NCBI GenBank assembly: GCA_034437275.1
Contig: DAOTUD010000185.1
Span: forward strand, 17,702-81,701
Length of the DNA stretch: 64,000 nt
Reading direction: 5' to 3'
From: Anaerolineae bacterium
GTDB lineage: Bacteria; Chloroflexota; Anaerolineae; Aggregatilineales; Aggregatilineaceae
A program made the translations under genes and the position numbers. Below are positions 3,101 to 54,913 of this stretch, one piece after another (positions within the stretch are counted from its first letter, which is position 1; each line of letters begins with the position of its first letter). The notes beneath the pieces were generated by a model that ran no database searches, was not told the origin of the DNA, and saw only the letters and a list, made by a program, of their open reading frames with translations.

Positions 3101-3117
3101 TGGACTGTTCCCTGGCG

Positions 3118-3672
3118 CTAGCCGCCGTTGGTCCGGATAAAATGCACCGTCAGGCGCTGCCCGCCCAGCGGGATCGGAAACTCGGTGCGGCTGATGTTGA
3201 CGACTTCCATTTGACCGGGATCGCCCAGCGTCGTAAAGTGCTGCTGCAGCGCGAGGCCGAGCGGCTGCGACACGATCAGCGATAGGGTCGCCAGCAGCAC
3301 GACTGTCGGCAGGCGCGCGAGGCGTTCCGCAAACCCGCCTTTCATGCCGGTGGTGCCCATCAAGGTCGCTGTCCCGGTCATCACCCCGGCAGTGACCAGC
3401 CCGGTGCCGCAGTTGGGATGGATCGCCAGCCGGTGCTCGCCGCTGCGCATCCGGTGCAGCGCCTCGTGGACCGCCGTTTCAACGTCCTCGGTGGCGACGT
3501 TGCCGTACAGATAAAAGCCGCCCACCGTCGACCGGCCCGCCATGCTCAAGTTTTTCACGCGGCGGCTCAGCAGGTGGATCGTGGCGTGTTCCAGCCCATG
3601 ATTCCGCCGGATGCGGCGTATCACCGGCAGATTGAGGATCGGAGCCGTAAGAAGGGCCAGATATTGGATCAT
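3118..3672 (-). CDS. Conserved hypothetical protein with RRNHGLEHAT and HPNCGT motifs and a hydrophobic C-terminal half
   Basis: Internal ATG at 3672 (MIQYLALL...) chosen over the ORF-track start at 3708. The His/Cys motifs suggest metal binding. Function unknown. Confidence 0.5.
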   Translation of the reverse strand: MIQYLALLTAPILNLPVIRRIRRNHGLEHATIHLLSRRVKNLSMAGRSTVGGFYLYGNVATEDVETAVHEALHRMRSGEHRLAIHPNCGTGLVTAGVMTGTATLMGTTGMKGGFAERLARLPTVVLLATLSLIVSQPLGLALQQHFTTLGDPGQMEVVNISRTEFPIPLGGQRLTVHFIRTNGG

Positions 3673-3708
3673 AATTTTCTCGCTTCGTTTTGTTAGCAGC
3701 CAACACAA

Positions 3709-4653
3709 TCAAGGGAGTGCATCCGACAGGCCCACCACATCCGGCGGCAGCGCAACGACCACCAGCCGGTGCGAGTTGGCGTTGTAGGGCCAGCATGTTA
3801 CGAGCGTAACACGTTCATCATCTGTCGGCAATATCCAGCGGGCATTTTCCTGGCGCACACTGACCGGCTGGTATTCCTCGGCCAGCGTCATGATCTGCGC
3901 CACGACATAGTAGTGTCTTTCCCCCTGCGCGTCCAGCGTCACGACATCGCCCGGTTCCAGGCGGATCAAATGCCGGAATACCGCGCCGTACACGTTGTGA
4001 TGCCCGTTGAGGACGATGTTCCCCGGCTGGTTGAGCGGGCTGGAGTTGTGGTGCCACCCGGCGGCGTACTCGTTGGGGACATCCCACTGGCTGTACGTCT
4101 GCCCGCCGAGCGTGATGGCGTGCTGCCCGACCAGCACCACCGGCGCATCCAACTCGATGGCGTCGATCACGATGCGCTCCGGGATCAGCGGGCGGGGGGT
4201 GGCCGTGGGGGGCGGCGTGGGGCTGGGGGCGGGGGTAGGGGTGAGGCTGGCGGTCACGGTGACAGTGATCGTGGCGGTGTGTGTCAGCGTGGGGGCAGGC
4301 GTCGCGCGGCGGGTGGGGCGCGCGGTATTGGCTGGGGGCACAGTTGCGGCGGCGAAAGACGTCGCGCTGGGGGGCGGTGTGCGTGTGGGCGTGGCCGGGA
4401 CTGGCGACTCGCGCGGGCTGACCGGCAGCATCGCGAGCTGGTCGGCCCGCAGCGCGGGCGGCGCCAGCGGCGAGCCGAGCAAACCGGGGGTGGGCGTCGC
4501 CTCGGCAGTCCCCGCTGCGCCGGGTGGCAGCAGCACCGCTTCGTCCGGCTCCAGCAGTCGCCACCCCAGCAGCGCGATCCCGCCCCCCAGGCAGCTCAAC
4601 CCCACGAGGGCGATGAGCGTGCCCATCACCAACGCCCGGCGCGGGTGGGACAT
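3709..4653 (-). CDS. Sortase-family transpeptidase with N-terminal TM anchor and long Pro/Thr/Ala-rich linker
   Basis: Start chosen at MSHPRRALVMGTLIALVGL (ATG 4653-4651), which overlaps the upstream gene's TGA as ATGA. C-terminal catalytic domain has NIVLNGHH and the TLVTCWP (TLxTC) cysteine motif. Confidence 0.8.
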   Translation of the reverse strand: MSHPRRALVMGTLIALVGLSCLGGGIALLGWRLLEPDEAVLLPPGAAGTAEATPTPGLLGSPLAPPALRADQLAMLPVSPRESPVPATPTRTPPPSATSFAAATVPPANTARPTRRATPAPTLTHTATITVTVTASLTPTPAPSPTPPPTATPRPLIPERIVIDAIELDAPVVLVGQHAITLGGQTYSQWDVPNEYAAGWHHNSSPLNQPGNIVLNGHHNVYGAVFRHLIRLEPGDVVTLDAQGERHYYVVAQIMTLAEEYQPVSVRQENARWILPTDDERVTLVTCWPYNANSHRLVVVALPPDVVGLSDALP

Positions 4654-8600: not shown

Positions 8601-9281
8601 CAACTGCTGAGCGTGGCCGACTACCTGGCGCGCAAATCAGTGTGGATCGTCGGTGGCGATGGCTGGGGCTACGACATCGGCTACGGGGGGTTGGACCACG
8701 TGCTGGCGTCCGGGCGCAATGTGAACGTGCTGCTGCTGGACACCGGCGTCTACTCGAACACGGGGGGCCAGATGTCCAAAGCGACGCCGCGCGGTGCCGT
8801 TGCCAAGTTTGCAGCAGCCGGCAAGAGCCTGCCCAAGAAGGACCTGGGCATGATCGCCATGACGTACGGCAACATCTACGTGGCGCAGATCGCGCACGGG
8901 GCAAACATGAACCAGGCGATCAAAGCCTTCCGCGAAGCCGAAGCCTACGACGGTCCGTCGCTGATCATTGCTTACACGCAGTGCATCGCGCACGGGTACG
9001 ACCTGCTGTACGGTAACCAGGTCCAGCAAGATGCGGTGGACTCCGGCTTCTGGCCGCTGTACCGCTTCAACCCGGACAACGCCCGCGTGGGCAAGCAGCC
9101 GCTGACGCTCGACTCCAAAGCGCCGACCGAGGATATCGAAACGTTCATGTACAAGCAGAACCGCTTCCGTATCCTGCGGAATTCGGACCCGGATCGTGCC
9201 GAAAAGCTGGCGGATGCCCTGCGCGACGATGTCCAGACACGCTGGAAGATGTACGAACAGTGGGCCCAGTTCGATCTCTAA
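5697..9281 (+). CDS. nifJ: Pyruvate:ferredoxin (flavodoxin) oxidoreductase, single-polypeptide type
   Basis: About 1194 aa. Two ferredoxin-type 4Fe-4S motifs (CIQCNQCAFVCP and CTGCGVCVETCP) and a TPP-binding region (GGDGWGYDIGYGGLDHV). AGGAGG RBS 7 nt before the ATG at 5697. Confidence 0.9.
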   Translation: MSNDSKRKMVTIDGNTAAAQIGHTLNEVIAIYPITPSSPMGELADEMSAARETNLWGTIPDVTEMQAEGGAAGAVHGALTAGALTTTFTASQGLLLMIPNMYKIAGELLPTCFHVAARSLAAQALSIFGDHSDITAARATGFGFLASGSIQEVHDMALIGTAASLESRVPFVHFFDGFRSSHEIQKIEKLNREDLGAVIDDEAVLAHRGRGMSPDHPVLRGTAQNPDVFFQGRESVNPYYVKTPQVVQDVMDRFAKVVGRQYHLFDYFGAEDAEYVVVLMGSGAEAAHEAVDYMVEEMGEKVGVVKVRLFRPFDNKALINAIPDSVKGIAVLDRTKEPGAGGEPLYLDIVLAFNEAVSDGDIKSMPKIVGGRYGLSSKEFTPAMVKGVFDNLAKDKPKNHFTVGIYDDVTDTSLEWDPDFSTEGEDVHRMMFWGLGADGTVGANKNSIKIIGKATDNYCQGFFVYDSKKSGARTISHLRFSKKPIRSTYLINKADFVACHNFSFLERYDMLTPLEKGGTFLLNSPYAADEVWDHMPREVQQQLVDKAAKFYVIDATSIAKQVGLGGRINVIMQAAFFQISGVLPEEQAMEMIEAAVEDTYGLKGAKVVDMNIKAAEIAVDRIETVDYPKKVTSDLTMRKPVPDDAPDFVRDVLGEIIAGRGDQLPVSAMPADGTFPTGTTQYEKRNVAIEIPVWDPDVCIQCNQCAFVCPHATIRMKVYDAEYANGNAPATFKSMDARGRSWKGMKYTVQVAPEDCTGCGVCVETCPAHAKDENGKKTDRKAINMEPLTEELRRNEAENWDYFLSLPETDPATFNRFTVKGSQFLPPLFEFSGACAGCGETPVVKLMTQLYGDRAIIANATGCSSIFGGNLPTTPYAKREDGRGPTWSNSLFEDAAEFGMGMRLTVDKLTKYAYEMLDKLNKTADNHTELLTAIRDAEMDEQEQIEEQRARVEELKSLLKQDDSDLAQQLLSVADYLARKSVWIVGGDGWGYDIGYGGLDHVLASGRNVNVLLLDTGVYSNTGGQMSKATPRGAVAKFAAAGKSLPKKDLGMIAMTYGNIYVAQIAHGANMNQAIKAFREAEAYDGPSLIIAYTQCIAHGYDLLYGNQVQQDAVDSGFWPLYRFNPDNARVGKQPLTLDSKAPTEDIETFMYKQNRFRILRNSDPDRAEKLADALRDDVQTRWKMYEQWAQFDL

Positions 9282-9307
9282 ACCGGCCCCACGTCTAGAA
9301 ATATCAC

Positions 9308-9340
9308 AACGCCCCGGAGCAATCTGGGGCGTTGTTTTTA
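9308..9340. terminator. Rho-independent terminator after nifJ (possibly bidirectional)
   Basis: Hairpin aacgcccc-ggagcaatct-ggggcgtt followed by gttttta. Confidence 0.6.
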
Positions 9341-9402
9341 GTTAGGGATTATGCCAAAACGTGCTGGGTCTACATGCCAGCCTGCATAGGACCGTGGCAG
9401 CG

Positions 9403-9765
9403 TCAGGGCCGGTAGTCGTTGAGCACTTCCACCAGCTCCGGCACGCTCACCGGCTTGACCAGGTAGAGATCGCCGCCGACTTCGCGGCAGCGCGCGATAT
9501 AGTCCGGCAGATCGTAGGCAGTGATCATGATCACCGGCGCGTTCACGCCATTGCGGCGCAGAATATCGGTCATATCCAGCCCGTTCAGATCGCCGGGCAA
9601 GTGAATATCGACCAGGAACAAATCTGCATCCCAGACATATTCGCTGTCTAAGGCACTTTCGGCATCACTGAATGTCAACAGCGAATCGCCAGTCGAGTGG
9701 GTGACTCGCTCCAACAGCAGAATATTCGTCGGATCGTCCTCAATATAGATGATGTTCATTAACAC
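9403..9765 (-). CDS. Single-domain response regulator (CheY-like receiver)
   Basis: 120 aa. Has the acidic pair (YIEDDP), the phospho-acceptor context (LFLVDIHLPG), ITAY and the LVKP lysine. Confidence 0.8.
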   Translation of the reverse strand: MLMNIIYIEDDPTNILLLERVTHSTGDSLLTFSDAESALDSEYVWDADLFLVDIHLPGDLNGLDMTDILRRNGVNAPVIMITAYDLPDYIARCREVGGDLYLVKPVSVPELVEVLNDYRP

Positions 9766-9850
9766 CCTACTTCAACCGCATTATCCAGGAGATGGCATCC
9801 ATTATACGCTAAAAGTCGGCTGGTTTCCAAGATAATCGAGTTGCAGCCAG

Positions 9851-9892
9851 AAAAAAGACCTTCTGAGTGCTCGTGTCACGCTCAGAAGGTCT
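9851..9892 (-). terminator. Rho-independent terminator of the ABC operon
   Basis: On the minus strand: 12-bp stem agaccttctgag/ctcagaaggtct followed by UUUUUU, 26 nt after the permease stop. Confidence 0.75.
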
Positions 9893-9917
9893 TGCTTGGT
9901 ATTCACTACACGGTGCT

Positions 9918-11744
9918 TTAGTCGAACCGGATGCGGGGGTCGAGCCAGGTGTACATGATGTCCACCAGGATATTCCCCAGGATCAGGAAGACGGAGTAGA
10001 GCAGCGAGACCCCCATGATCATGGTGTAGTCACGGGCGGCCACACTTTCCACAAACACCTTGCCCAGCCCCGGGATGACGAAGATCAGTTCGACCACGAA
10101 CGTACCGGTCAGCACGGCGGCCAGCAACGGCCCCAGGATCGTCGTTACCGGGATCATGGCGTTCTTGAGCGCGTGGACGTAAACCACAACACGCTCGCGC
10201 AGGCCCTTCGCGCGTGCCGTGCGCACATAGTCTTCGTGCAGCACCTGGAGCAGGCTGGCGCGCGTCAGGCGGGCGATACCGGCGCTCATGCCGGTGCCCA
10301 GCGTGATGACAGGCAGCGCCATGATCTTGATGTAGTACGACGACAGTTCTGGGCCTTCACGCCAGGCATTGTCCGTCGCCGCGACCGGCACCCATCCCAG
10401 TTCCACCGCGAAAATGATGATCAGGATGGGGGCCAGTACAATCGAGGGTGTGGACTGTCCCATCACAGCGAAGAACATCGCCACATAGTCGATCGCACTG
10501 TTATGATAGACTGCTGCCAAGACGCCGAGCGGAACCCCCAACAGGAAGCCCAACGCGACCGCGAACAGGCCGACCTGCAAGGAGACGGGCAGACGTTCGG
10601 AGATTTCCTCGCTCACCTGGATGTTCCGGGTGCGGTTCGACACGTTCAGCGAAGGGCCGAAGTCCATGTGCATCGCGTCCCACATGTAGTTGAAGAACTG
10701 CGAGTCCAGCAGGTCGATGCGCGTGACCTTCACCGTGTTACGCGTGGTGGCGGTCGCATCGCCGCCGCTCTCTGTCAAGGTCTCGTACCGGGTGATCGGA
10801 AGCAGGCTCCACGACTTGGGCCTCTTGGGTTCTTCTTCGATCACAAATTCCGGCTCGGCAGGTTCTTCCGGGGCCTCAATTGCCAGGGCTTTCACCTCGG
10901 CTTTAGCCTCATTCACCCCCTCTTGGAGTTTGGGGATTCTCTCTTCCTCTTTAAAGCTGCCGCTGGTGCGTACCTGGGCCAGGGTGCTCTGCAGCTCGTT
11001 CAGGCGCTCAACAGCCGCGTCGTATTCTGCCAGGCTTTCCTCGGCTTCCACCAAATACTGCTGGTGCTCGGTGAGCTTGGTCGCGGCATAGTCCTGCATG
11101 GCATCCGCGTCGAACTGGTCCAGCGCCATACTGGCTGCGACCAGTCGCTCGCCAGCCTCATTCATCTGCGCTTCGAGCTGGTCAACCTCGGCGCCCACCC
11201 CTTGCAGGGACAGGGCGGCGTTGTACTTCTCGACGGCAGCCACATACTCGGCTTCGGCGGCTTCGTATTCGGTCAGAGCCGCCTGGTGCGCCTGATACTG
11301 CTCGTACTGCGCCTTGATGTCCTCGTATTCCTGGTAGTGGTCTACGCCGACCAGATAGGCCTGGTAGTCCGCGTGCCGTGCCAGGTCCTTGTTATATTCG
11401 TCGTAGCATCCAGCCGCTTCCATCTGATCTTCAGCTTCGGGGCATTTGCCGTCGTTCCAGGTGTTGAAGATCAGCGGCTTGTCCAGGCCAAACTGCTGCT
11501 CGAGCTGTTCCTTCACATAATCCGGCATCCGGCGCTGGCCGACCGCATTGAACGGGCCACCGGGCAGCAGATGGGACAATGTGAAGGTCACCAGCAAGAT
11601 CGCAAGCAGGACCGGGATGGCTGCCAGCAATCGCCGGATCAGGAACTTGAGCATGCTGGTGCCCCCTATGGCCCGCAGAATGCCGGTCAGGAAGTCCCAG
11701 ATGCTTTTCAGTAACCCGAAAACTATTCTTTGTACTTCTTGCAT
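9918..11744 (-). CDS. ABC transporter permease, OppB/DppB-like, with a coiled-coil insertion of about 255 aa in the first extracytoplasmic loop
   Basis: The ends match the DppB pattern: MLKFLIRRLLAAIPVLL..., FGLDKPL, then DFGPSL...ISERLPVSLQ, and a C-terminal EDYVRTARAKGL. An alternative start is the ATG at 11654. Confidence 0.8.
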   Translation of the reverse strand: MQEVQRIVFGLLKSIWDFLTGILRAIGGTSMLKFLIRRLLAAIPVLLAILLVTFTLSHLLPGGPFNAVGQRRMPDYVKEQLEQQFGLDKPLIFNTWNDGKCPEAEDQMEAAGCYDEYNKDLARHADYQAYLVGVDHYQEYEDIKAQYEQYQAHQAALTEYEAAEAEYVAAVEKYNAALSLQGVGAEVDQLEAQMNEAGERLVAASMALDQFDADAMQDYAATKLTEHQQYLVEAEESLAEYDAAVERLNELQSTLAQVRTSGSFKEEERIPKLQEGVNEAKAEVKALAIEAPEEPAEPEFVIEEEPKRPKSWSLLPITRYETLTESGGDATATTRNTVKVTRIDLLDSQFFNYMWDAMHMDFGPSLNVSNRTRNIQVSEEISERLPVSLQVGLFAVALGFLLGVPLGVLAAVYHNSAIDYVAMFFAVMGQSTPSIVLAPILIIIFAVELGWVPVAATDNAWREGPELSSYYIKIMALPVITLGTGMSAGIARLTRASLLQVLHEDYVRTARAKGLRERVVVYVHALKNAMIPVTTILGPLLAAVLTGTFVVELIFVIPGLGKVFVESVAARDYTMIMGVSLLYSVFLILGNILVDIMYTWLDPRIRFD

Positions 11745-11803
11745 ATTGTCCTCTTGTAGTCTATAACCCGGGGCAACCTCAGGTGGGCTGCCCCGGAGTG
11801 TCG

Positions 11804-44358: not shown

Positions 44359-45204
44359 ATGGACCACACCGCGCAACCTGCTGCCGAGTACGCCGTCGAT
44401 GAATTGATGGCGGTGTGCATTGCGCGGCAGGTGCAGGACGGCGACCTGCTGGTGCATGGGCTGGCGACGCCACTGGTCGCGGCGGGGTATATCCTGGCGC
44501 ATCGCACCCATGCCCCGCGCGCGCATTTTGCGTCGGCCATCGGCCAGGGCATGGTCCAGGGGTGGGCACCGTTGGGCATTGCGCGTGCGGAAGAGTTGTG
44601 GCTGGGAAAGGCGCTCGCCAACGCCAGCTTCATCGTGACCGTCGCCGATGCCCTGCATACGCTCGCGCCCAAAGAGTTCTTCCGCCCCGCCCAGGTGGAC
44701 CCCCAGGGTAATTTTAACAATATCGCCATCGGTAAGAACTACCACACGCCGCGCCTGCGGCTGCCGGGGACCGGCGGCATCCCGGATGTATCGGTCTATT
44801 CCAGCAAAATGTACATGTACGTGCCACGCCACTCGCGCGCGATCTTTGTCCCGAAGGTGGACTGGGTGAGTGGGTTGGGTCACGACCCGGCGCGCAAACG
44901 CGGCAGCGGGCCGGTCTATCTGGTGACTGACCTGGGACAGTTCGATTGGGCGGAAGGCCGGATGCGGCTGGTCAGCATGCATCGCGGGGTGTCGCTCCAG
45001 CGTATTCAGGCCAAGACCGGGTTTGAGCTGGCGGTTGCGCCGGACGTGCACGAAACCCCGCCGCCCACGCAGCACGAACTCCACCTGCTGCGCGAGGAGA
45101 TCGACCCGCTGGCGGTGCGCCGTTTGGAGACGCTGGCCGGTACGGCGCGGCGTAACCACCTGCGCGCCATCCTGGAGCAGGAAGACCGGCACGCGCCCGG
45201 CTAG
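44359..45204 (+). CDS. Family I CoA-transferase, subunit B-like
   Basis: 281 aa. DELMAVCIARQVQDGDLLVHGLATPL resembles beta-subunit N-termini. Presumed partner of 41266-42060. Confidence 0.55.
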   Translation: MDHTAQPAAEYAVDELMAVCIARQVQDGDLLVHGLATPLVAAGYILAHRTHAPRAHFASAIGQGMVQGWAPLGIARAEELWLGKALANASFIVTVADALHTLAPKEFFRPAQVDPQGNFNNIAIGKNYHTPRLRLPGTGGIPDVSVYSSKMYMYVPRHSRAIFVPKVDWVSGLGHDPARKRGSGPVYLVTDLGQFDWAEGRMRLVSMHRGVSLQRIQAKTGFELAVAPDVHETPPPTQHELHLLREEIDPLAVRRLETLAGTARRNHLRAILEQEDRHAPG

Positions 45205-45818
45205 GCCTCGTCTTCCTCGCCGTTGTCTTCTAGCTCGCGCTCCAGCATACTGAGCGCCTCCCCTGCAAAGCGACAGAATAACCAGATCAGGGCTTTGTCG
45301 GTTTCGTCAAATGGCTCGCTGCCGGTCTTGTTGATGGCCTCGACTACGCCCAGCACATGCTCATCGCCGACCAGCGGCACGGCCAGAATCGAATGGGTGT
45401 GGAAGCCGGTTTGCTCGTCGATGCGCTGGGAGAAGCGCTCGTCCAGGCGGGCATTGAGGACGATGGTCGGCTGGCGGTGCTGGACGACCCATCCGGCGAC
45501 CCCTTCCCCGGCGGGGATGCGGTAGCCTTTGAGTTGGGGCGCAACCTGCCCGCGCACAATCACAAACGTGAGTTCGCTGGCCTCCTCATCCAGCAAGGCC
45601 AGGGACCCGTCCTCAACCTCGACGATGGCGAGCGCATCGGTCAAGATGCGCGCCAGGAGATGCAGCAGTTGGTCGCTGCTGCGGGCACGGAGCGCTTCGC
45701 GGTCAAGCTCCAGCAGGGTCGCGATAAACTCACGATAGCGCACCACCTGGTCACGGAGCTGTTCGTTTTCCTGCTTCAAACGGGCAAGTTCGCCGGACAT
45801 GAACTGGTGGGAAGACAT
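45201..45818 (-). CDS. Coiled-coil plus GAF-domain protein
   Basis: 205 aa. N-terminal heptad-like LARLKQENEQLRDQVVRYREFI. GAF core GSLALLDEE...GYRIPAGEGVAGWVV...ILAVPLV. Confidence 0.7.
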   Translation of the reverse strand: MSSHQFMSGELARLKQENEQLRDQVVRYREFIATLLELDREALRARSSDQLLHLLARILTDALAIVEVEDGSLALLDEEASELTFVIVRGQVAPQLKGYRIPAGEGVAGWVVQHRQPTIVLNARLDERFSQRIDEQTGFHTHSILAVPLVGDEHVLGVVEAINKTGSEPFDETDKALIWLFCRFAGEALSMLERELEDNGEEDEA

Positions 45819-45836: not shown

Positions 45837-47048
45837 CTACATATTCGGTGTTTTTATCGGCAGCAGGACCTTGAAGGCGCTGCCGGGGAGTTTTTCCTCG
45901 TTATACCCTTCGCTTTCGACCCACACCATGCCGCCGTGCGCTTCGACCGCGCCCTTGACCAGCGCCAACCCTAACCCCGGGCCACCGCCCTTGAACGACG
46001 TCCGGCCCGACGAATGCAGCGCGACCTGCCCGATCTGGTAGAACTTCTCGAAAATGGCGGAGTGGTGCTTCGGTTCGATGCCGATGCCGGTGTCCTGGAC
46101 CATAATCGCGACTGCTTCGCCCAGCCCTTCGACATCCGTCGTCCAGTACGTGATCGTGATCTCGCCGCCGTCGGGCGTGTACTTGATGGCGTTGACCAAC
46201 AGTTGGTAGAACACCTTGTACATCATGTTGGGGTCGGCTTCGATGTAGGGGACGTCGCCGATGCGCTTGATGTGCAGCGTCAGGTTGCGCTCATCCAGGG
46301 AGGCGCTGAAGGCTTTCTTCAACTCGGTCAGGATGCTCTGCAGCAGCACCGGCACGTGCGACACCTGGAGTGATTCGCTGTCCAGCTTGGTGATATCCAG
46401 CATACTGTTGACGATCTCGTGCAGCCGGGTGGTGCCGCGCACAATGCCTTCGACCACTTCCACCAGCGAGGTAGTGCCCTGGATCACGCCGCTGTTGCGC
46501 AGCACATCCGCATAGCCTTGAATGACGGTCAGCGGGGTGCGCAGTTCGTGCGCCGCGATCTCGATGAAGTCCAGCTTGGCTTTGTCCAGGCGGGCGAGTG
46601 TCTGGTAAGCGTCGCGCAGATCGGAGAGCGCGGTCTGGTCGTTGGCGCGCAGGCGGTCGAAGGTGATGCGCACCATCCGCCAGGCCAGGCTGGGGCTGGA
46701 GGCCATCAGGTGCTCGAACACGTCGCGGTCGAACTCCAGCACGGTCGTGTCGCGCGTGGTGCGCACATTAGCCGAACGCGGCGCATCCTGGATCAACGCC
46801 ATCTCGCCAAAGAATTCACCCGCCCCGCTGTGCCGCAGCACACGCTCTTCGGCCCCTTCAAAATGCTTGGTGATCGCTACCTCGCCGGACACGATCAGGT
46901 AAAAAACGTACTCGTAAGCCCCTTCCTTGCAGATCAACGTGTTGGGCGGATAGGTCTTGATGCGGACCAGGTCCGCGATCTCTTGCAGTGTATTCGATTC
47001 CAGGTCAGGAAAAGCATCCTGGAGCGTTTGAATGACATTGACTTCCAT
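45837..47048 (-). CDS. Cyclic-nucleotide-binding domain fused to histidine kinase (soluble)
   Basis: Start at MEVNVIQ, after a GGGAGG RBS. cNMP motif FGEMALIQDAPRSANVRT. H-box AAHELRTPLT, and G-boxes DTGIGI and GPGLGLAL. Confidence 0.85.
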   Translation of the reverse strand: MEVNVIQTLQDAFPDLESNTLQEIADLVRIKTYPPNTLICKEGAYEYVFYLIVSGEVAITKHFEGAEERVLRHSGAGEFFGEMALIQDAPRSANVRTTRDTTVLEFDRDVFEHLMASSPSLAWRMVRITFDRLRANDQTALSDLRDAYQTLARLDKAKLDFIEIAAHELRTPLTVIQGYADVLRNSGVIQGTTSLVEVVEGIVRGTTRLHEIVNSMLDITKLDSESLQVSHVPVLLQSILTELKKAFSASLDERNLTLHIKRIGDVPYIEADPNMMYKVFYQLLVNAIKYTPDGGEITITYWTTDVEGLGEAVAIMVQDTGIGIEPKHHSAIFEKFYQIGQVALHSSGRTSFKGGGPGLGLALVKGAVEAHGGMVWVESEGYNEEKLPGSAFKVLLPIKTPNM

Positions 47049-47188
47049 GACTTGCCTCCCGCAGCGTTCTTGCGCGCAGTGTAGCACACTTGGCGCGTTG
47101 GCAATAGTGAACCGTCCCCTTACCAAGACAAAACGCGGGACCAACCTGGCCCCGCGCATTATCCATACCGGCGTGCGAGCCGACCAGA

Positions 47189-49192
47189 TTATGCCTGCCC
47201 CAACAGCGCCTGTACCCGCGCGACGACGTGCTCGGGTGTCAGGCCGAACTGCTGGAAAATATCCTTGTACGGAGCCGACGCGCCGAAGCGGTCGACGCCC
47301 ACAATCGCGCCCTGCGTGCCGACCCAGCGCTGCCAGCCGGACGTGACGCCGGCCTCGATGGCGACGCGCGCCGTGATGTTGGGCGGCAGCACCGAGTCCT
47401 GGTAGTTCTGGCTCTGGCGTGCGAAGCGTTCCCAGCTTGGCATACTGACCACGCGCGCGGCGATGCCCTTTTGCGCCAGCAGTTTCTTGGCATCCAGCGC
47501 GAGGTGCACCTCAGAGCCGGTGGCGATCAGGATCACGTCGATCTGCTCGCCTTCGACATCGGTCAGGACATACGCGCCCCGGTCGACGCCGCCGGTGATC
47601 TTCACGACCTGCGCGGCATCGAACACCGGCACCTTCTGCCGGGTGAGCGCGATCACGGTCGGGTGGTCGCGGTTCTGGATCGCACAGCGCCACGCGGCAG
47701 CCGTCTCGTTAGCATCCGCCGGGCGAATGACCTCCATGTGCGGGATCAGGCGCAGCGACATGATCTGCTCGACCGGCTGGTGTGTCGGGCCATCTTCGCC
47801 CAGCCCCACGCTGTCATGCGAGAAGACGAAAATCGGGGCAAAGTGGCTCAGGGCCGCCAGCCGCATCGCCGGGCGCATGTAGTCCGAGAAGACAAGGAAA
47901 GTGGCGCTGTACGGGATCAGGCCGCCATGCGCCGCCATGCCGTTCACGATGCCGCCCATCGCGTGCTCGCGGACGCCAAAACGAAGGTTGCGCTGGTCGT
48001 AGTGCCCGGCCTGGAAGTCATCATCGCTGTCAATATAGGTTTTGGTGGACGAATCCAGGTCCGCCGCGCCGCCGATCAGGCCCGGCAGGTGCGGCGTCAG
48101 GGCATTGATGACTTTGTTCGAGGCGTTGCGCGTGGCCAGCTGGTCGTCGTTGAAGACCGGAATGTCACGGTCCCACCCTTCGGGCAGTTCGCCGGCCATC
48201 ATGTGCTGCCAGTCGGCGGCCTGCTCGGGGTTGGCGGCGGCCCACTTGTCCCACATCGCCTGCCATTCGGCCTGCCACGCCTTGCCGCGCTCGACCGCCT
48301 GCCGGAAGTGCTCGCGCACGTCGTCCGGTACGAGGAAGGTCGGTTCCTGGGGCCAGCCGAGGGCGTCTTTGGTCAGCGCGACTTCCTCCTCGCCCAGTGC
48401 CGAGCCGTGTGCTTTGGCGGTGCCGGCTTTGTTCGGGCTGCCGTAGCCGATGGTGGTCGTGACCATCAGCAGCGAGGGGCGCTCGGTTTCGTCGCGGGCG
48501 GCCTGGATCGCGTGCTCGATGGCGTCCAGGTCGTTGCCGTCCTCGACGCTCAGCACATGCCAACCGTAGGCCTCGAAGCGCTGCGCGACATCCTCGGTGA
48601 AGGCCATCTCGGTGCTGCCGTCGAGCGACACGGAGTTATTGTCGAACAGGTAGATCAGCTTGCCGAGCTTGAGATGCCCGGCCAGCGAGGCCGCCTCGGC
48701 AGCGACGCCCTCCATCAGGTCGCCGTCGCTGACGAGCGCGTAGATGTAATGGTCCATGACGGCGTGCGCGCCGGTGTTGAAACGCGCGGCGAGATGCGCC
48801 TCAGCGATGGCCATCCCGACCCCGTTGGCGAAGCCCTGGCCCAGCGGGCCGGTCGTCGTCTCGACGCCTGGCGTCAGGCCGTATTCGGGGTGGCCGGGCG
48901 TGATGCTGTCCCACTGGCGGAACTGCTTGATCTGCTCCATCGGCAGGTCGTAGCCAGTCAGGTGCAGCAGCGCGTACAGCAGCATCGAGCCGTGCCCGGC
49001 GGACAGCACAAACCGGTCGCGGTCGATCCAGTCTGGATCGTTGGGGTTGTGCTTCAAAAAGCGCGTCCACAACACATACGCCATCGGTGCGGCTCCCAGC
49101 GGCAAGCCGGGATGCCCGGAGTTGGCCTTCTGAACCGCGTCAATTGACAGGGTTCGGAGCGTGTTAATACATTTCTGGTCAAGATCAGACAT
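47189..49192 (-). CDS. tkt: Transketolase
   Basis: 667 aa. Motifs [21 protein letters not shown] (TPP motif), [15 protein letters not shown]. Confidence 0.95.
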
Positions 49193-49321
49193 GATATCCT
49201 TCCAAGATTATGCGTGCTTTTCCCCTATCAATTGTAGCAGGCTCGTAGAGAGTGCGCATAAAAACGGCTTGTGTGTTAAGCTAGAAGCTCGCGATTAGCG
49301 CAGTATACAGGTGTTGGACAA

Positions 49322-49954
49322 ATGAGTGATAACCCTGAAGAAACTTACGATATCGACGAGCTTGAAGCTTATTGCATGACGTGCCGCCAAAAAACGCCGG
49401 TGGCGAACCCGGAGCCGATCTGGACCCGGCGCGGCGCACCCGGTACCCGCGGCACCTGTGCGGAGTGTGGAACGACGGTTTTTGTGATGGGCTGGACGAA
49501 CGCCCACGCGCGACTCAAACGGCCCGAACCGGTGCGTGTCTCCGAAGGCGCGCCGCGCGGCGGGCGCAAGATTCCCCACGACGTGACCTACATCAATTAC
49601 AGCGTGTCCGACGTAGACTTCGTCACCCGGCTGGCCGAAGACCTGAATCGAATTGGCATCCAGACCTGGCTGGCCGAAAGCAACGTGAAGGGCGTCCAGT
49701 GGGCGACCGGCGTGCATCCGGCCCTGGTTGAATGCAAACACATGATCGTGGTGCTCTCGTCGTTTGGCATCAAAGCCACCAACGTTACCGAAGCGTTGGA
49801 TTATTTCCTGGAAACCGGCAAGCCGATTGTGGTTGTCCAGGTCGAGCAGGACGCCGAGGTACCCGACGAATTACGCCGTAAACCCCGGTTCGACTTTTCC
49901 GGGGACAACTACAAATCCGCATTCCGCGAACTGGTCCAGGTGCTGACCGGCTAA
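49322..49954 (+). CDS. Zinc-ribbon (CxxC...CxxC) fused to a TIR domain
   Basis: N-terminus YCMTCRQK-x22-CAECGTTVF. The C-terminus aligns by eye along the whole TIR_2 consensus: VTYINYS..VTRLAEDLNRIGIQTWLA...HMIVVLSS...NVTEAL...GKPIVVV. Confidence 0.75.
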   Translation: MSDNPEETYDIDELEAYCMTCRQKTPVANPEPIWTRRGAPGTRGTCAECGTTVFVMGWTNAHARLKRPEPVRVSEGAPRGGRKIPHDVTYINYSVSDVDFVTRLAEDLNRIGIQTWLAESNVKGVQWATGVHPALVECKHMIVVLSSFGIKATNVTEALDYFLETGKPIVVVQVEQDAEVPDELRRKPRFDFSGDNYKSAFRELVQVLTG

Positions 49955-50985
49955 TAGGCGCGCCGGATCAAAAAGGCGGCATACTCCTGGATCAGGTCCT
50001 GTGTGTCGTTGCTGATCCCGGTGCAGTCGAGGCTGTCGAGCGCGGTGTCGTAATACTGGCGCGCGATGGTGTCGGTGTGTGTGGCCGCATCCACCCGCCC
50101 CAGGATTGCCAGTACCGCCTCGATATCCGCCTCGGTGAGCGCGTCTTGCGCATAAAGGCGCTGGAGCTGCTCCCGGTCTTGCGGCGCGGCGCGTGCAAAC
50201 GTAACCAGCACCGGATAGGACTTCTTCTTTTCACGGATATCGCTGGTGGCCGATTTGCCGGTCGTGGCCTGGTCGCCCCACACGCCCAGGTAATCGTCGC
50301 GTATCTGAAACGCGACCCCCAGGTTGCGCGCAAAACTCCCATACGCCTCGACCACCGCCGGATCGTCGGTGCTCAGCAGCGCGCCGATCTTGGCGGCGGC
50401 TTCGATGAGCGTCGCCGACTTGTTGGTGATCATGGTGATGTATTCGTCCGGCGATACCTGCGCGCGCTCCTCGAAGTCAATGTCGAGAATCTGCCCTTCG
50501 CACATCCAGACACACGCCTGAGCGAGCACCCGGCTGACCTGCACGACTTTGGCCGGGGGCGTGCCAGCTTCGAGCAGGCGCGTGGTGGCCAGGTTCGCCA
50601 GCGAGAACAACCCATCCCCGGCATTGATCGCCTGCGCCTTGCCCCACCGCGTCCAGACGGTCGGGCGGTGCCGGCGTTCCGGGGAATTGTCCATCACATC
50701 ATCGTGAATCAGCGTGAAGTTGTGGATCATTTCCAGCGCCGCGCCCGCCGGCAGCACGTGGCGATAGCCCCCGCTGATCGCCTGGGCGATCAGGGCCATC
50801 AGCAGCGGACGAATCTTCTTGCCGGACACGCGGCGGGCCTGGGCGTCGTCTTCCAGGTCCCAACCAAACTGGTAGTCGATGATCTGCCACAGGATTGGCG
50901 CGATGACGGTCTGCTCCTGGCGAATGGCGCGCAGTTCGGCGTCGATGTTGGCGATAATGGGGCCAAACGCTTCACGATATCCCAT
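49951..50985 (-). CDS. Polyprenyl diphosphate synthase (trans-isoprenyl, GGPP/long-chain type)
   Basis: Start at MGYREAF, after an AAGGAG RBS. First DDxxD motif LIHDDVMDNS, second FQIRDDYLG. Confidence 0.85.
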   Translation of the reverse strand: MGYREAFGPIIANIDAELRAIRQEQTVIAPILWQIIDYQFGWDLEDDAQARRVSGKKIRPLLMALIAQAISGGYRHVLPAGAALEMIHNFTLIHDDVMDNSPERRHRPTVWTRWGKAQAINAGDGLFSLANLATTRLLEAGTPPAKVVQVSRVLAQACVWMCEGQILDIDFEERAQVSPDEYITMITNKSATLIEAAAKIGALLSTDDPAVVEAYGSFARNLGVAFQIRDDYLGVWGDQATTGKSATSDIREKKKSYPVLVTFARAAPQDREQLQRLYAQDALTEADIEAVLAILGRVDAATHTDTIARQYYDTALDSLDCTGISNDTQDLIQEYAAFLIRRAY

Positions 50986-51093
50986 ATCGTTTTCTCCTTC
51001 GTGAGTACAGCATACCATCTATTGTAACTGTTTTTGCGGGAACGAGCGCAGCTCCCAACAATGCAGGGGTGCCCCAACCATCTTCTGAAGGTT

Positions 51094-51126
51094 TTGACAG
51101 GGTTTAGCACCCTACAACCCTGTCAA
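51094..51126. repeat. Perfect 11-bp inverted repeat
   Basis: ttgacagggtt-N11-aaccctgtcaa, immediately next to the recombinase remnant. Confidence 0.6.
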
Positions 51127-51132
51127 TGGCGG

Positions 51133-51628
51133 TTACCCCGTTCGTGGAAAATCATCGATTCTCCCAGCGGGGTTTTTGCGTTTCTGACCCCGGAGCAGCT
51201 CGGCAGCGGCATGCAAATCCTCATCTGCCGCGCAGTAGCCCATGGTTGTGGACACATTGGCATGGCTGAGATAGACCTGGATCACGGTCGGCAAAACGCG
51301 GGCACGCCTGGCACGCTGGCTGTCAGGCAGCACAGTAGAACTGCGCAGAATCATCAAAACGACCGTCAGCACTGACGAACTCCCCCTGATGATCGCCCTC
51401 GAAAAGGAGCGCAGCATCCCGCGCAGCACCGTGAAAGGCTGACTCAGCAGCAGTTTGATTTCTAGCGCGGGCGGGTGTGTCAATCGCTGACGGCGGCTGG
51501 TGGCGGGTCTTCCGCCATGAGACGCCGCAGGAAATGCAGTGCCCACCGTCCCTGCCTGCCGCGACAACATCGTCCGTGAACTGCGTGACAACCTTTAGTT
51601 CCGCATCAGACACAAACCGGCATACCAC
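51133..51628 (-). pseudogene. Degenerate, frameshifted tyrosine recombinase (phage-integrase family), C-terminal fragment
   Basis: The end of ORF 51133-51591 reads ...VIQVYLSHANVSTTMGYCAADEDL, matching the LGHxxxxTTxxYxH catalytic-Tyr region. Upstream similarity is spread over overlapping frames (ORF 51323-51628), and no intact N-terminal domain is present. Confidence 0.5.
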
Positions 51629-51968
51629 CCGTGGACCACCCGACCAGCATATCCCCGCCAGTGTGTTTTTGACAAACAGATCGACGAAGATGTCCGGCTC
51701 GGCAGCAGCGGCGAGCGGTTTAAGTCAGCCAATATCCTTAAATAAGACCCATCGAAGGCAGCTTGCGCCAAAAGCGTTACAAAGCTGATTTGGACCGTTC
51801 ATTCCTGCACGGCCTACTGGCTCAGATTTGATGCGGTTGCCCTGCTAGACAGGATCGCTGCGTTGCACTTTTTTTTGTTTGCTCCCATAATCAGATTTAA
51901 GCATACAATGGCGCATCTCTGGTCTGGTGGTGGATGGATACCGCTTCTTTAACATAAGGAGAACATAG

Positions 51969-53057
51969 ATGATGTTTGGCAGAGTCCTAGTCATTATCGG
52001 CCTGGTGTGCACACTGGGTCTGTCTGCCAGTTGGGCGCTGGCACAGGGCGATCCGCAGCTGCTTACCTATGGGCAAACGCGGAACGGCAGCATGACAGAA
52101 GGCGGGCAGGTAGACGCATATGCGTTCGAGGGCACAGCCGGCGATATGGCTGTGATCACGATGCGCAGCCTCAATCCAGACAGTCAATTAAATTTCAATC
52201 CGTTTGTTAGCTTGTTCGGACCGAATGGTAACGAGATCGCCAGTGATGACGACAGCGCGGGCGCGTTCGATGCGCGTATTATTGTCCGGCTGCCTGTCGA
52301 TGGACAATATACCTTCGAGGCGCGGGTTTCGGATCGCGGAGTTGATCCCACTGGAAATTACGTAGTGGGGATCGACAAGCTCGATGCCACTATGCTGGCG
52401 TACGGTGACATCGTAAGCGGGCAAATTCAGCAGGATGAGCAAGAAGTGTATTACCTGTTCGAGGGACAGGCGGGGGACGCGATCGCGGTTGAAATGCGCG
52501 CTGCCGAACCGTATGTCGCTTACGCTGCCAATAACTTCGATCCTGCTCTCCGCTTGCTAGGTCCGGGCGGCATCCTGCTAGATAGTGACAACGATTCTGG
52601 TGCGCTGGCCGATGCTGTAATCATGTTTGTGCTCCCTGAAGATGGGTTGTATACGATTCTCGCAACGGCTAACCATGCGCCCAGCGCGTATACGTTGTTG
52701 CTAGGGCCAGCCCCGCTACTGGAACCAGGCCAGGTCGTGGTCGCGCCGGCATTAACCTGGCGCACACAGAGCACGTATGGTGTGCGTGCCGAACCGGGCG
52801 ACACCATCAACCTAGTGATCCACACAATAGACCCGGTAGCTGCAAACTTCAAGAGCGAGGTGCTGATCAGAAATAATCACGGCACATTGGTCGCCGAAGC
52901 CTTTGGACAGGGAATGGCTAAATTGAACGTAACGCTGCCAGAACCGAGCTTTGCGTCATCCAGCGGTTACGACGCGGGCATCTATCTGGTACAGGTAGGC
53001 AATGATAACGAAGACTCGACAGGCAGCGTAGCGATCATGTTGGAGAGTGTGCAATGA
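51969..53057 (+). CDS. Secreted protein made of pre-peptidase C-terminal (PPC)-like repeats
   Basis: Signal peptide. At least two clear modules of the type YGQ..G.....D.Y.FEG.AGD...I.M...-(N)FDP.L.L.GP.G......D.DSG...A.I...LP.DG.YT(I/F). Confidence 0.65.
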
Positions 53058-54913
53058 AGCGTTTACTACTCATCGGTTTAGTTTGCAGTGCGCTGCTGCT
53101 GGTGGCGCTGGCGGTGTTGGCCCAGGATGGCGGGGAGATCCGCTACGGGGATCGGGTTTTCGCAACATTTACCGGCCCCGAGCAGGCCCATGTATATACC
53201 TTCACAGGTGGGACCGGAGACAAGGTGTATATTCGCGCCGAGGTCCAGGACGTAACTGCTGTGCTGGAGGGACAGGTTGGGCTTTCGCTCGATGCAACGC
53301 TGACCGCGCCTGATGGTAGTTCGGTTAGCGTGGACAAACGACAAGACACGTTCGGGCATGTGCTCCTGGATGGAACGCTGCTGGCAGATGGAACGTATAC
53401 ACTGACCATTATCAACGTTACCAAAACCGGCGAGTATAAGCTGGCGTTGGATGCTCATCGGGCAGATGCCATCATCGTTGAAGGTGACAGCGATGCTCAA
53501 CCGGCTGATGATCCGCCGGATATACCGGCTGAGGTCAACATCCCCCAGACACCGCTTATGCCGGGCACAATCCTGGCGTATGGCGAAGGCGGTACCGGCA
53601 CAATTGCGGCTGTCGAAGAGCGTGACATGTATACCTTCACCGGCAGCGAAGGTGATATTGTGCGAATCACCATGATGCATATTGAGGGCTACTCAACCGA
53701 CGTTGGCTTCGACCCTTTGCTGCGCTTGTTGGCTCCGGACGGAACCGAATTGATCAAGCGTAACACGCAGCCCAATGAATTCCTGGATGCTCAGATCATC
53801 TACCAGCTGCCTGCCAATGGCACCTATACCATTGTGGCGCAGGACTTCCTGGCATTGGGGCGAGGCAAGTACGGTTTGCTGCTGGATACCGGCACACAGG
53901 TTATGCTCGATGCAATACCCGCCACAATGCCCGATGATGGCGTGCTAGCACTGGACGGCGAGCCGGTTGTGGGCGAGATCACCGACTACGGCATGCCGCT
54001 AGAAGCAACATTCCAGGGAGCCGCCGGGCAGGATGTGCGGATTGCGATGGATGAGTTCGACTACAGCGGCATCGATCCGCTGCTGATTCTGCTGACTCCA
54101 GATGGCAGCGAACTCGCCCGCGATGACGATTCCGGTGGCGGCCTAAAAAACAACAACGCCGTGATTGTGGCGAACTTGCCGGTTGACGGCACCTATACGA
54201 TTGTCATGACCACCGGCATTACCAGTACGGATTACCTGACCGGCCCGATTGGTTTGTTCATACTGACGGTAGAACAGTCCACCAGTGCGACTTCTGGCGC
54301 TGAGTTCGTTGTCGAAGGGCTGAGCGCCAGCGAGCAGCAAGCCTTCCCATTGGATGGTGCGGCGGGGCGTGTAGTGGTGATCCAGGTTGAGCCGCAAACC
54401 GACGTTATGCCACAAGTTGGCGTCTATACCCAGGATGAACAATTGATCGCAGAAACTGTCGGTAACAAGACCTCCTATACGTTTACGGTGATGCTGCCGG
54501 ATGATGATCTGTACCTTTTGCGGGTAAGTGCCAGATATGGCACATCAGATGATCGTGTTGCGGTGCGGATTGTTTACCAGGGCGATGATCTAGTCGAAGC
54601 GGGCGTACCGGCCATTGATGAGGCAGCTATCACGGCAGCGCTGGCCGAAGCCGAAGCCCAAATTGAAGCACAGCAGCCGCCTGAATGTACTGCTACGGTG
54701 GCAAGTGGTGCGAATCTGCGCGGGGGGCCAGGCACCACTTACGCGGTGGTAGCTGGCGCTGCAGCAGGAGACATGCTGCGTGTGACAGGGCAGAATGCCG
54801 CCGGAGACTGGTACCAGCTGCAGATACCAGGCATTGAAACGGCCTGGATCGCGTCATTCCTGGTCAGCGAGCCGGCCTGTCCGGCGGATTTCACCTTGCC
54901 GGTTGTGGAATAA
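53054..54913 (+). CDS. Secreted multi-PPC-repeat protein with C-terminal SH3b-like domain
   Basis: ATGA overlap with the upstream gene. Signal peptide and four or more PPC-like modules. C-terminus [22 protein letters not shown]...[18 protein letters not shown] is typical bacterial SH3. Confidence 0.65.

Follow-up and report, generated by a model that had tools for sequence, protein, structure and literature searches.

The question raised by this locus is whether a zinc-ribbon/TIR protein of Anaerolineae is an NAD-cleaving or signal-generating anti-phage enzyme, as the original prediction held, or a TIR protein of another kind. In the window, the 64,000-nucleotide stretch of DNA analysed as a whole, the proposed ORF is present at 49,322..49,954 (+); it is complete, encodes 210 aa and ends with the stop codon TAA at 49,952-49,954. 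Four segments can be distinguished on the plus strand: an acidic N-terminal tail (aa 1-16, 49,322..49,369, net charge -7); a DUF5679 zinc ribbon with a short C-terminal helix (aa 17-66, 49,370..49,519, net charge +5); a basic linker (aa 67-87, 49,520..49,582, net charge +2), where the model confidence is lower than in the rest (pLDDT about 70); and the TIR domain (aa 88-210, 49,583..49,951), delimited by the TIR_2 profile, AlphaFold2, Foldseek and alignment. The basic string RLKRPEPVRVSEGAPRGGRK, already pointed out as a linker, was found at aa 64-83. This charge pattern is conserved across the family, with mean values of -8.9 (tail), +4.1 (ribbon), +2.7 (linker) and -4.2 (TIR).

The immediate neighbours are those described before. 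A divergent transketolase gene (tkt, 47,189..49,192, -), kept in the clade of at least 55% identity, lies upstream across a 129-bp intergenic region (49,193..49,321), and a polyprenyl synthase gene (49,951..51,018, -) converges from downstream, the two genes overlapping by 4 nt at their stop codons in this genome. A scan for promoters and terminators around the gene gave counts at chance level; the sole sigma-70-like match (49,144-49,173, +) falls within the coding region of tkt and is no better than expected by chance. An identical protein (P0001) is present in public microbial-mat metagenome contigs. The NCBIfam search with the 210-aa protein assigned no family.

The C-terminal domain has a true TIR fold. 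The Pfam TIR_2 profile (PF13676) matches aa 90-205 from position 2 to 122 of 122 (E 3.2e-15; 57.1 bits, cut-off 28), and the predicted end-to-end agreement with its consensus thus holds. The AlphaFold2 model of the whole protein (pLDDT 89.4, pTM 0.79) was matched by Foldseek to the solved TIR structures of MyD88 (the top match), SARM1, TIR-1, SPARTA-TIR, TRR-2 and ThsB with probability 1.00 and target-normalised TM-scores of about 0.6-0.8; TIR-STING was also among the matches. The best sequence-profile match in the PDB is Hydra TRR-2 (E 1.8e-4), aligned over the full-length TIR. The BFVD search gave only remote matches to TIR and nucleoside-2-deoxyribosyltransferase folds. The TIR elements are betaA (88-92), alphaA (95-110), betaB (114-117), betaC (140-145), alphaC (153-165), betaD (169-173) and alphaE (197-209).

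Such a fold, with a TIR_2 score over threshold, would fit a stand-alone abortive-infection NADase with the ribbon as the sensor of a phage cue and E157 as the catalytic Glu. We consider this very improbable, and the register of the Glu is a main point against it. In TIR NADases, the catalytic Glu lies in alphaC (AbTir E208, SARM1 E642), a Gly is found in the BB loop (AbTir G174, SARM1 G601), and the WxxxE aromatic residue (AbTir W204) is required for cyclic products. In AbTir, the E208A variant is fully inactive and E208D is reduced, and the activity of the BB-loop mutant G174A is absent or very low (10.1101/2022.05.07.491051).

When the PDB was searched by sequence, the single protein and the family profile alike matched AbTir only weakly and over the N-terminal half (E 0.01-0.1), and these matches end before alphaC; the register was therefore settled through bridging canonical TIR_2 sequences. 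The hhalign comparison with a SARM1-like TIR_2-FGE-sulfatase neighbour gave no usable alignment (probability 2.5%). The hhalign comparison of the family profile with a canonical TIR_2-WD40 TIR paired NVT-E157-A158-LDYF with ICN-D-E-IDYA, and the Glu of the latter in turn falls on that of WCLDEL in the RPP1 NADase. The MAFFT alignment placed A158 opposite the Glu of the closest relatives that carry one (P0128, DVQDEWQYF; P0132, NVKAEWGYF), with an ungapped betaC-betaD stretch; the same stretch is ungapped in the HMMER alignment with Hydra TRR-2. Judged by these sequence alignments, the canonical catalytic-Glu position is Ala158, and E157 stands one residue earlier (codons 49,790..49,795, +). 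The NVTEAL Glu had been assigned to the catalytic position, and all three methods contradict this.

Conservation was calculated from 192 unique family sequences over 123 TIR columns. Column 158 is A155 G15 S10 T4 N2 H1 C1 E1, so that A/G/S account for 94%. Column 157 is E97 D34 A21 Q12 K10 T9 S5 R2 (68% acidic) and ranks only 89 of 123 in conservation. Among the 105 sequences of the protein's own clade (at least 55% identity), 98% have an acidic residue at position 157 (E78, D25), which favours the NADase reading; however, Glu and Asp exchange at 3:1 in this clade, the E208D change already impairs AbTir, and the distant clade is non-acidic at this column in 68%. A non-canonical catalytic role may be kept by E157 in the near clade. 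The other catalytic features also vary in the family. The WxxxE Trp position is N154 in the 210-aa protein (family column N/S/H/A/D/E and others, rank 114 of 123). G124 stands opposite AbTir G174 in a loop alignment that is less certain than that of alphaC, and in the family D/E/N predominate at this column, G occurring in 14/192.

Other parts of the TIR are strictly conserved. The canonical N-terminal motif is kept (betaA Y-I-N-Y-S..D97). The BB loop/alphaB contains the invariant W127-A-x-G-V-H132-P133-A-L135, the segment after betaD contains the invariant P181-D-x-L-R185-x-x-P-R189-F-D-F, and R202 is invariant in alphaE. G112, W127, H132, P133, P181, R185, R189 and R202 are identical in 192/192 sequences. 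The BE interface of TIR assemblies is formed by the BB loop/alphaB surface and the alphaD-betaE-alphaE surface. From secondary-structure position and general TIR knowledge, we take the invariant residues to lie on both of these surfaces.

The N-terminal ribbon is the Pfam domain DUF5679 (PF18930), which matches aa 17-56 over all 40 profile positions (E 2.1e-12; 47.4 bits against a cut-off of 27). The predicted four-Cys ribbon is therefore present (C18-x2-C21 ... C46-x2-C49), although its spacer is 24 residues and not 22. The four cysteines are invariant across the family alignment, and the structural model of the ribbon alone has a pLDDT of 91.5. Chloroflexi topoisomerase I carries DUF5679 as its N-terminal module, and the topoisomerase-linked modules share 44-53% identity with this ribbon over about 59 residues; these copies also carry Lys/Arg-rich tails. 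In one protein (P0151), two DUF5679 copies are joined to Toprim; at two loci (L089 and L090), DUF5679 ORFs adjoin or overlap topA; in another protein (P0184), DUF5679 is joined to HhH, RNAP alphaCTD, sigma70 r4 and HARE-HTH. These fusion partners and the Lys-rich tails suggest that the ribbon may bind nucleic acid or RNAP.

Foldseek found nothing significant for the model of the ribbon alone (best E 0.2); the Pol I A12.2/RPB9, Rpp21, Cren7 and NrdR ribbons that headed its output were discarded as evidence. The PDB sequence search with the DUF5679 profile gave no match. No functional study was found in the literature on DUF5679 or, as had been supposed for this domain arrangement, in that on TIR plus zinc ribbon. 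The protein is thus an uncharacterised variant on a known TIR theme.

Relatives were found in at least 159 species-representative genomes, all from Chloroflexota and mostly from Anaerolineae, and each of the 80 loci retained belongs to a different assembly. Their neighbourhoods were read from pre-called genes. The order tkt, gene, polyprenyl synthase is held in most of the 30 closest loci; the distant relatives lie next to recA, mreBCD or rpmH-rnpA-yidD-yidC-jag, and abhydrolase/P-type ATPase genes form a further housekeeping context in the family. Across 90 loci there is no conserved partner or neighbour gene, in agreement with the lack of an evident partner seen at this locus. Searches of the phage and plasmid collections gave no match. 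The gene has native composition (GC 0.597, window 0.607). From these comparisons of sequence and gene order, it looks vertically inherited, single-copy and lineage-specific in the class Anaerolineae.

This distribution also bears on the NADase reading. The patchy, mobile distribution of Thoeris, CBASS and Pycsar systems is not seen, since the family is confined to Chloroflexota, keeps its synteny over many genera and has native GC. Neither a ThsA-type effector, a CD-NTase or a cyclase partner nor a defence-island location was found in the 90 loci, where the neighbours are housekeeping genes. In favour of defence, PADLOC gave a match to the candidate system PDC-S66, which is weak and partial (E 1.2e-4, 61 residues), and one distant member (L084) sits between two canonical TIR_2 genes. 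A possible integrase fragment also lies about 1.2 kb from the gene. This piece, previously called a recombinase remnant, is a 23-aa match to the C-terminal end of Phage_integrase found in a lenient scan; it is sub-threshold (E 0.15; 12.2 bits, cut-off 27.1), and Pfam at E<=0.01 gave no match there. There is no tRNA near it, the only tRNA of the window being at 24,347. It lies past the conserved polyprenyl synthase gene; the zinc-ribbon/TIR gene is on the conserved syntenic side rather than at the edge of an accessory segment as first proposed. Consistent housekeeping contexts among homologues had been named in advance as evidence against defence, and such contexts, with vertical inheritance, were found. 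Together with Ala158 and the lack of phage or plasmid relatives, they argue against an NAD-cleaving or signal-generating anti-phage TIR.

In one sub-lineage, the family protein is fused to a ribokinase-family (PfkB) kinase. A gene-calling artefact was rejected because the fusion recurs on 13 contigs. NUDIX genes are neighbours in two sub-clade loci. The kinase fusion and the transketolase and NUDIX neighbours could point to a ribose or nucleotide ligand, a hint that runs counter to pure scaffolding.

Ala at the catalytic-Glu position, vertical inheritance and a topoisomerase-I-type ribbon therefore give the protein the look of a nucleic-acid-tethered scaffold, not of a mobile anti-phage NADase. 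Our preferred explanation, in which our confidence is evenly balanced, is a topA-type ribbon and basic linker joined to a TIR that lacks the canonical NAD-glycohydrolase residues, giving a protein that would be tethered to DNA or transcription, self-associating and non-enzymatic. The basic ribbon and linker might hold the protein to DNA, or to a partner that topoisomerase I also has, for instance the transcription machinery. The TIR might work without catalysis, by head-to-tail self-association or as an adaptor module, through the two invariant surfaces that, by their secondary-structure position and general TIR knowledge, would form the BE interface. The conserved acidic tail may mask the basic ribbon. 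In outline, a module that binds DNA would be joined by a flexible linker to one that oligomerises, as in nucleoid-structuring or adaptor proteins. More tentatively, the protein may be a domesticated, non-enzymatic core-gene TIR of filamentous Anaerolineae, with a ribbon that docks on DNA or RNAP and a TIR that polymerises via the BE interface; it might also serve these bacteria as a hub for their many catalytic TIR proteins, or as a brake on them.

The same conserved surfaces would suit a protein that is catalytically dead and serves other TIR proteins as an adaptor or regulator, co-assembling with them via the BE interface while the ribbon localises the assembly on DNA. It could act in two modes, either as a non-catalytic partner completing composite active sites or as a filament-capping inhibitor. 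We think this unlikely. TIR_2-WD40, TIR_2-FGE-sulfatase and multi-TIR proteins are numerous in Anaerolineae and could be partners, and in this family both halves of the BE interface are invariant and the catalytic residues are lost. The active sites of TIR NADases are assembled from two TIRs across this interface (10.1101/2022.05.07.491051). The TIR is most closely related to Glu-bearing repeats of TIR_2 within multi-domain proteins, although one of these multi-TIR proteins belongs to Ca. Parabeggiatoa, outside Chloroflexota. The distant member between two canonical TIR_2 genes would fit such a regulator, but of about 85 distinct loci only 2 have another TIR gene within +/-8 kb, and linkage to any partner is not conserved.

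An improbable further alternative is a ligand-sensing TIR, whose degenerate pocket would bind NAD+, ADPR or a cADPR-like signal uncleaved and thereby control the binding of the ribbon to DNA or RNAP. The canonical N-terminal TIR motifs, the invariant K167, R185, R189, R202 and H132, the recurrent kinase fusion, the transketolase neighbour and the NUDIX genes are consistent with it. However, these associations are restricted to sub-clades and might reflect plain synteny, and the invariant residues, by secondary-structure position, appear spread over two surfaces and not gathered in one pocket.

Bacterial TIRs are at present seen almost wholly as enzymes of immunity that consume NAD, and scaffold-type TIRs are regarded as peculiar to animals. 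This family would be set apart in four ways: it is class-wide, it is inherited vertically with housekeeping neighbours, it lacks the catalytic Glu, and it carries a topoisomerase-type ribbon tether. If this is confirmed, non-catalytic adaptor TIRs arose in bacteria too. On the more tentative reading of a domesticated TIR, the family would match the adaptor TIRs of animals as their prokaryotic counterpart and would be the first case of a bacterial TIR with a housekeeping (non-immune) role. The finding also offers a first lead to the function of DUF5679, the ribbon at the N-terminus of Chloroflexi topoisomerase I. Genome-mining pipelines should check the catalytic register before such TIR_2 matches are scored as defence genes.

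Four groups of known systems come closest to the protein. It shares with the DUF5679 module of Chloroflexi topoisomerase I the two CxxC pairs, T-R-G, G57, T59, H62 and P68, and a basic segment comes after the ribbon in both; there the ribbon precedes Toprim/Topoisom_bac, whereas here it precedes a TIR and follows an additional acidic tail. The protein resembles nucleoid-structuring proteins of the H-NS and Lsr2 type only in its layout, in which a flexible basic linker joins a small, basic, DNA-binding-like module to a putative self-associating domain, and in being encoded by a single-copy chromosomal gene. There is no sequence or fold kinship, the domain order is reversed, and DNA binding and oligomerisation are here predicted features. 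The bacterial TIR NADases (AbTir, BtpA/TcpB and Thoeris ThsB) have the same fold, the same Pfam TIR_2 and the canonical betaA motif; unlike them, the 210-aa protein has Ala for the catalytic Glu, Asn for the WxxxE Trp and a BB-loop Gly that varies across its family, and its gene is vertically inherited, outside defence islands and without a ThsA-like effector partner. The animal scaffold and adaptor TIRs (MyD88, MAL and Hydra TRR-2) are remote homologues, at about 20% identity, and orthology is not implied; the present protein is bacterial, is fused to a zinc ribbon and has no death domain or receptor context. Like it, these TIRs lack the catalytic Glu, and in both the conservation gathers on the BB loop and alphaD-betaE-alphaE surfaces.

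The ribbon-TIR protein is the 210-aa product of an ORF at 49322..49954 (+), exactly as the original prediction had given it. It belongs to two Pfam families: DUF5679 (PF18930) at aa 17-56 (E 2.1e-12, 47.4 bits, cut-off 27) and TIR_2 (PF13676) at aa 90-205 (E 3.2e-15, 57.1 bits, cut-off 28). No NCBIfam family was matched. The TIR_2 match spans profile positions 2-122 of 122, in agreement with the end-to-end correspondence claimed earlier. The four-cysteine ribbon is present (C18-M-T-C21 ... C46-A-E-C49), although its spacer has 24 residues and not the 22 first noted; the linker RLKRPEPVRVSEGAPRGGRK was found at aa 64-83, as described. The AlphaFold2 model, which used a 33-sequence family alignment as input, is confident (pLDDT 89.4, pTM 0.79) and shows a four-stranded ribbon followed by a TIR-type βA-αE succession. 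Its PDB matches (Foldseek) include MyD88, SARM1, C. elegans TIR-1, SPARTA-TIR, Hydra TRR-2, ThsB, and TIR-STING. The zinc ribbon and TIR architecture is real. A literature search found no characterisation of it, as had been supposed, and such proteins are already in the databases under the label 'TIR domain-containing protein'. The suggested PADLOC check did match a candidate family, PDC-S66, but the match was weak and partial (E 1.2e-4, 61 residues).

In NAD-cleaving TIRs, αC carries the catalytic Glu four residues past an aromatic residue (WxxxE), the pair being W204 and E208 in AbTir (10.1101/2022.05.07.491051). In AbTir, activity is wholly abolished by E208A, lowered by E208D, and absent or very low in the BB-loop mutant G174A (10.1101/2022.05.07.491051). 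The catalytic Glu of the ribbon-TIR protein had been placed in the segment NVTEAL. Counted from the βC serine (S146 = 0), the canonical Trp is at +8 and the canonical Glu at +12; the ribbon-TIR protein has N154 at +8, E157 at +11, and A158 at +12. This register was checked four ways. In the hhalign alignment of the family profile with a canonical TIR_2-WD40 TIR, encoded beside a family member at locus L084, NVTEALDYF pairs with ICNDEIDYA, with E157 opposite Asp and A158 opposite Glu. The Glu of this bridging protein pairs with the one in the 'WCLDEL' segment of RPP1, an NADase (7crb/7xoz). Among 1.84 billion representatives searched exhaustively with HMMER, the nearest TIR_2 relatives outside the family are P0128 and P0132, which read 'SPASVKSPDVQDEWQYF' and 'SPEAIKSHNVKAEWGYF'. 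Their MAFFT alignment has no gap from βC through βD; their Glu falls over A158 and their Trp over L159, where most family members have W159. The best PDB sequence match of the family profile is Hydra TRR-2 (E 1.8e-4), and this HMMER alignment is also ungapped from βC to βD. By these comparisons, E157 is out of register, and A158 occupies the canonical catalytic Glu position, contrary to the original assignment.

Conservation was counted in an alignment of 192 unique family sequences and ranked among 123 TIR columns. At column 158, the canonical Glu position, Ala is found in 155 sequences, Gly in 15, Ser in 10, Thr in 4, Asn in 2, and His, Cys, and Glu in 1 each. The preceding column 157 (rank 89/123) holds Glu in 97, Asp in 34, Ala in 21, Gln in 12, Lys in 10, Thr in 9, Ser in 5, and Arg in 2. 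Column 154, the WxxxE Trp position, is variable (rank 114/123). Judged from sequence, the TIR lacks both the catalytic Glu and the WxxxE Trp of the NAD-cleaving enzymes. Position 157 is acidic in 98% of the near clade (at least 55% identity to the window protein, n=105; E78, D25), and in only 32% of the distant clade (n=87). This acidic residue of the near clade is the sole remaining support for a stand-alone NADase defence protein, as first proposed, in which E157 would be used non-canonically; that reading is now very unlikely.

Eight residues are invariant in 192/192 sequences (G112, W127, H132, P133, P181, R185, R189, and R202), and A128, G130, V131, L135, K167, and F162 are near-invariant. 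The conserved residues form two blocks: the end of the BB loop with αB (W-A-x-G-V-H-P-A-L), and αD-βE-αE (P-D-x-L-R-x-x-P-R-F-D-F ... R202). Their secondary-structure positions and published TIR assemblies suggest that these blocks are the two halves of the head-to-tail 'BE' interface. TIR repeats related to the family's TIR were also seen in the giant proteins P0124 (1773 aa), P0130 (2023 aa), and P0135 (2208 aa). In P0124, labelled Candidatus Parabeggiatoa and outside Chloroflexota, WD40 repeats come after a tandem array of seven TIR_2 domains; seven stretches each of P0130 and P0135 match the family profile.

A word-indexed search identified 128 relatives. Among the 120 listed, identity is 42-76%, all have both domains except one 154-aa fragment, and lengths are 203-259 aa, save this fragment and one 185-aa protein. 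Source names are given for a few of them, all Chloroflexi or Anaerolineae. When one genome was scanned for each GTDB species, at least 159 loci encoded a relative; the 80 loci retained come from 80 different assemblies, labelled Anaerolineae, Aggregatilineales, Thermoflexus, Ardenticatenia, or Chloroflexota. As originally noted, transketolase (47189..49192, -) lies divergently upstream, and polyprenyl synthase (49951..51018, -) converges downstream with a 4-nt overlap of stop codons. Most of the 30 closest loci (at least 55% identity) keep one or both neighbours, contig permitting, often with the same histidine kinase, CoA-transferase, and Zn-peptidase genes further upstream, and with mevalonate-pathway genes further downstream. 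The GC content of the gene (0.597) agrees with that of the window (0.607), and tblastn found no relatives in 50,697 phage and 72,556 plasmid records. Taxonomic spread, conserved synteny, native GC, and the lack of phage or plasmid relatives are what a core gene passed on vertically shows, and do not fit a mobile defence module. The context typical of Thoeris, CBASS, or Pycsar systems is absent. Directly beyond transketolase come two further minus-strand genes. The first encodes a cNMP-binding histidine kinase (45837-47159) and is kept throughout the syntenic clade; the second, for a stand-alone GAF-domain protein (45201-45818), was found at just one other locus, L012.

The gene had also been placed at the edge of an accessory segment, near a recombinase remnant. 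The suspected remnant (51133-51360, -) does give a Phage_integrase-like match, but only over 23 residues at the extreme C-terminus and below threshold (E 0.15, 12.2 bits, cut-off 27.1). No tRNA was found near it in the window. Over 51019-54913, GC falls to 0.55-0.57, versus 0.61 for the window. Two PPC-domain secreted proteins (51969-53057 and 53054-54913) are absent from the orthologous loci, where mevalonate-pathway genes come after polyprenyl synthase instead. This stretch is plausibly an insertion; it starts past the conserved polyprenyl synthase gene, with the ribbon-TIR gene on the conserved side.

Distant members have other contexts, also housekeeping and conserved within sub-clades: an α/β-hydrolase with a P-type ATPase, mreB-mreC-mreD, or an abhydrolase, with ECF sigma factor and NUDIX genes at a greater distance. 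Housekeeping contexts of homologues had been named beforehand as evidence against the defence reading. Two distant loci (L083 10140-12259 and L088 13135-15308) share, at 2-6 kb downstream of the family gene, an ECF sigma factor, an unknown gene, and a NUDIX hydrolase. In one sub-clade, recA is consistently followed by a small ORF (about 104-112 aa) and then by the ribbon-TIR gene (L087 6405-8648; also L062, L069, and L070); given the topoisomerase-type ribbon, this adjacency possibly indicates a DNA-metabolism link, or plain synteny. In one lineage, on 13 contigs, a ribokinase-family (PfkB) kinase is fused to the DUF5679-TIR_2 protein (L091 7001-8476; P0286/P0122, 491 aa), and the fusion gene is the last of the rpmH-rnpA-yidD-yidC-jag cluster. 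The PfkB fusion, together with the transketolase and NUDIX neighbours, hints at a ligand-sensing TIR tied to ribose or nucleotide metabolism, which seems improbable. As a dead TIR, the protein might instead regulate, or pair with, the many catalytic TIR proteins that these bacteria encode. This is unlikely; of about 85 distinct loci, only 2 have a second TIR gene within +/-8 kb of the family gene. The sole clear TIR cluster among these is L084, in which a distant member lies between TIR_2-FGE-sulfatase and TIR_2-WD40 genes (6497-7768, -, and 8766-11765, +), whose TIRs retain the canonical Glu ('DWVLCEI' and 'ICNDEI').

No functional literature on DUF5679 was found. P0151 is an in-frame fusion of two DUF5679 copies and Toprim. 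At L089 and L090, 'stand-alone' DUF5679 ORFs (6001-6189 and 2194-2505) lie directly upstream of topA (6158-8350 and 2477-4610; Toprim, Topoisom_bac, and Zn_ribbon_Top1) and overlap its start. In the source annotation these ORFs carry the name 'DNA topoisomerase I', and the overlaps may have arisen from frameshift errors where assembly coverage was low. DUF5679 forms the N-terminal zinc ribbon of DNA topoisomerase I in Chloroflexi. Other fusions are P0184 (1005 aa; two ribbons, HhH, two RNAP αCTD, sigma70 region 4, and HARE-HTH) and P0144 (1406 aa; seven tandem ribbons, then FGE-sulfatase). The window's ribbon is 44-53% identical to the topoisomerase-linked copies and keeps each position that is invariant in them, among these the ones in the short helix G57-x-T59-x-x-H62 ... 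P68. These copies often have Lys/Arg-rich C-terminal tails, with net charge up to +16. The ribbon-only model is confident (pLDDT 91.5); it has no significant structural neighbour in Foldseek (best E 0.2), and the DUF5679 profile found no PDB sequence match. Mean charges in the ribbon-TIR family follow a conserved pattern: acidic N-tail -8.9, ribbon +4.1, linker +2.7, and TIR -4.2. The DUF5679 fusions, the topA linkage, and this charge pattern suggest binding of the ribbon to DNA, or to a partner that topoisomerase I also has, such as RNA polymerase.

The most likely reading, at about even confidence, is an anchored protein with a non-catalytic TIR. The basic ribbon and linker would anchor the protein on nucleic acid or on the transcription/topology machinery. 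The TIR would serve as a self-associating or adaptor module, because it has lost the NADase catalytic apparatus and both BE-interface surfaces are invariant. The acidic N-terminal tail might have a masking role. The point of interest differs from the original one: not a novel sensor on a killer TIR, but a class-wide, housekeeping-embedded, Glu-less bacterial TIR joined to a topoisomerase-type zinc ribbon. Compared with NAD-cleaving TIRs, the protein is without their catalytic Glu and WxxxE Trp. The column aligned to their BB-loop Gly (AbTir G174; column 124, rank 103/123) is mostly D/E/N in the family, and the window protein itself has G124 there, in a loop that aligns less securely than αC. 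By analogy only, its conservation pattern is closer to that of the scaffold TIRs, such as MyD88, MAL, and TRR-2, than to that of the enzymes.
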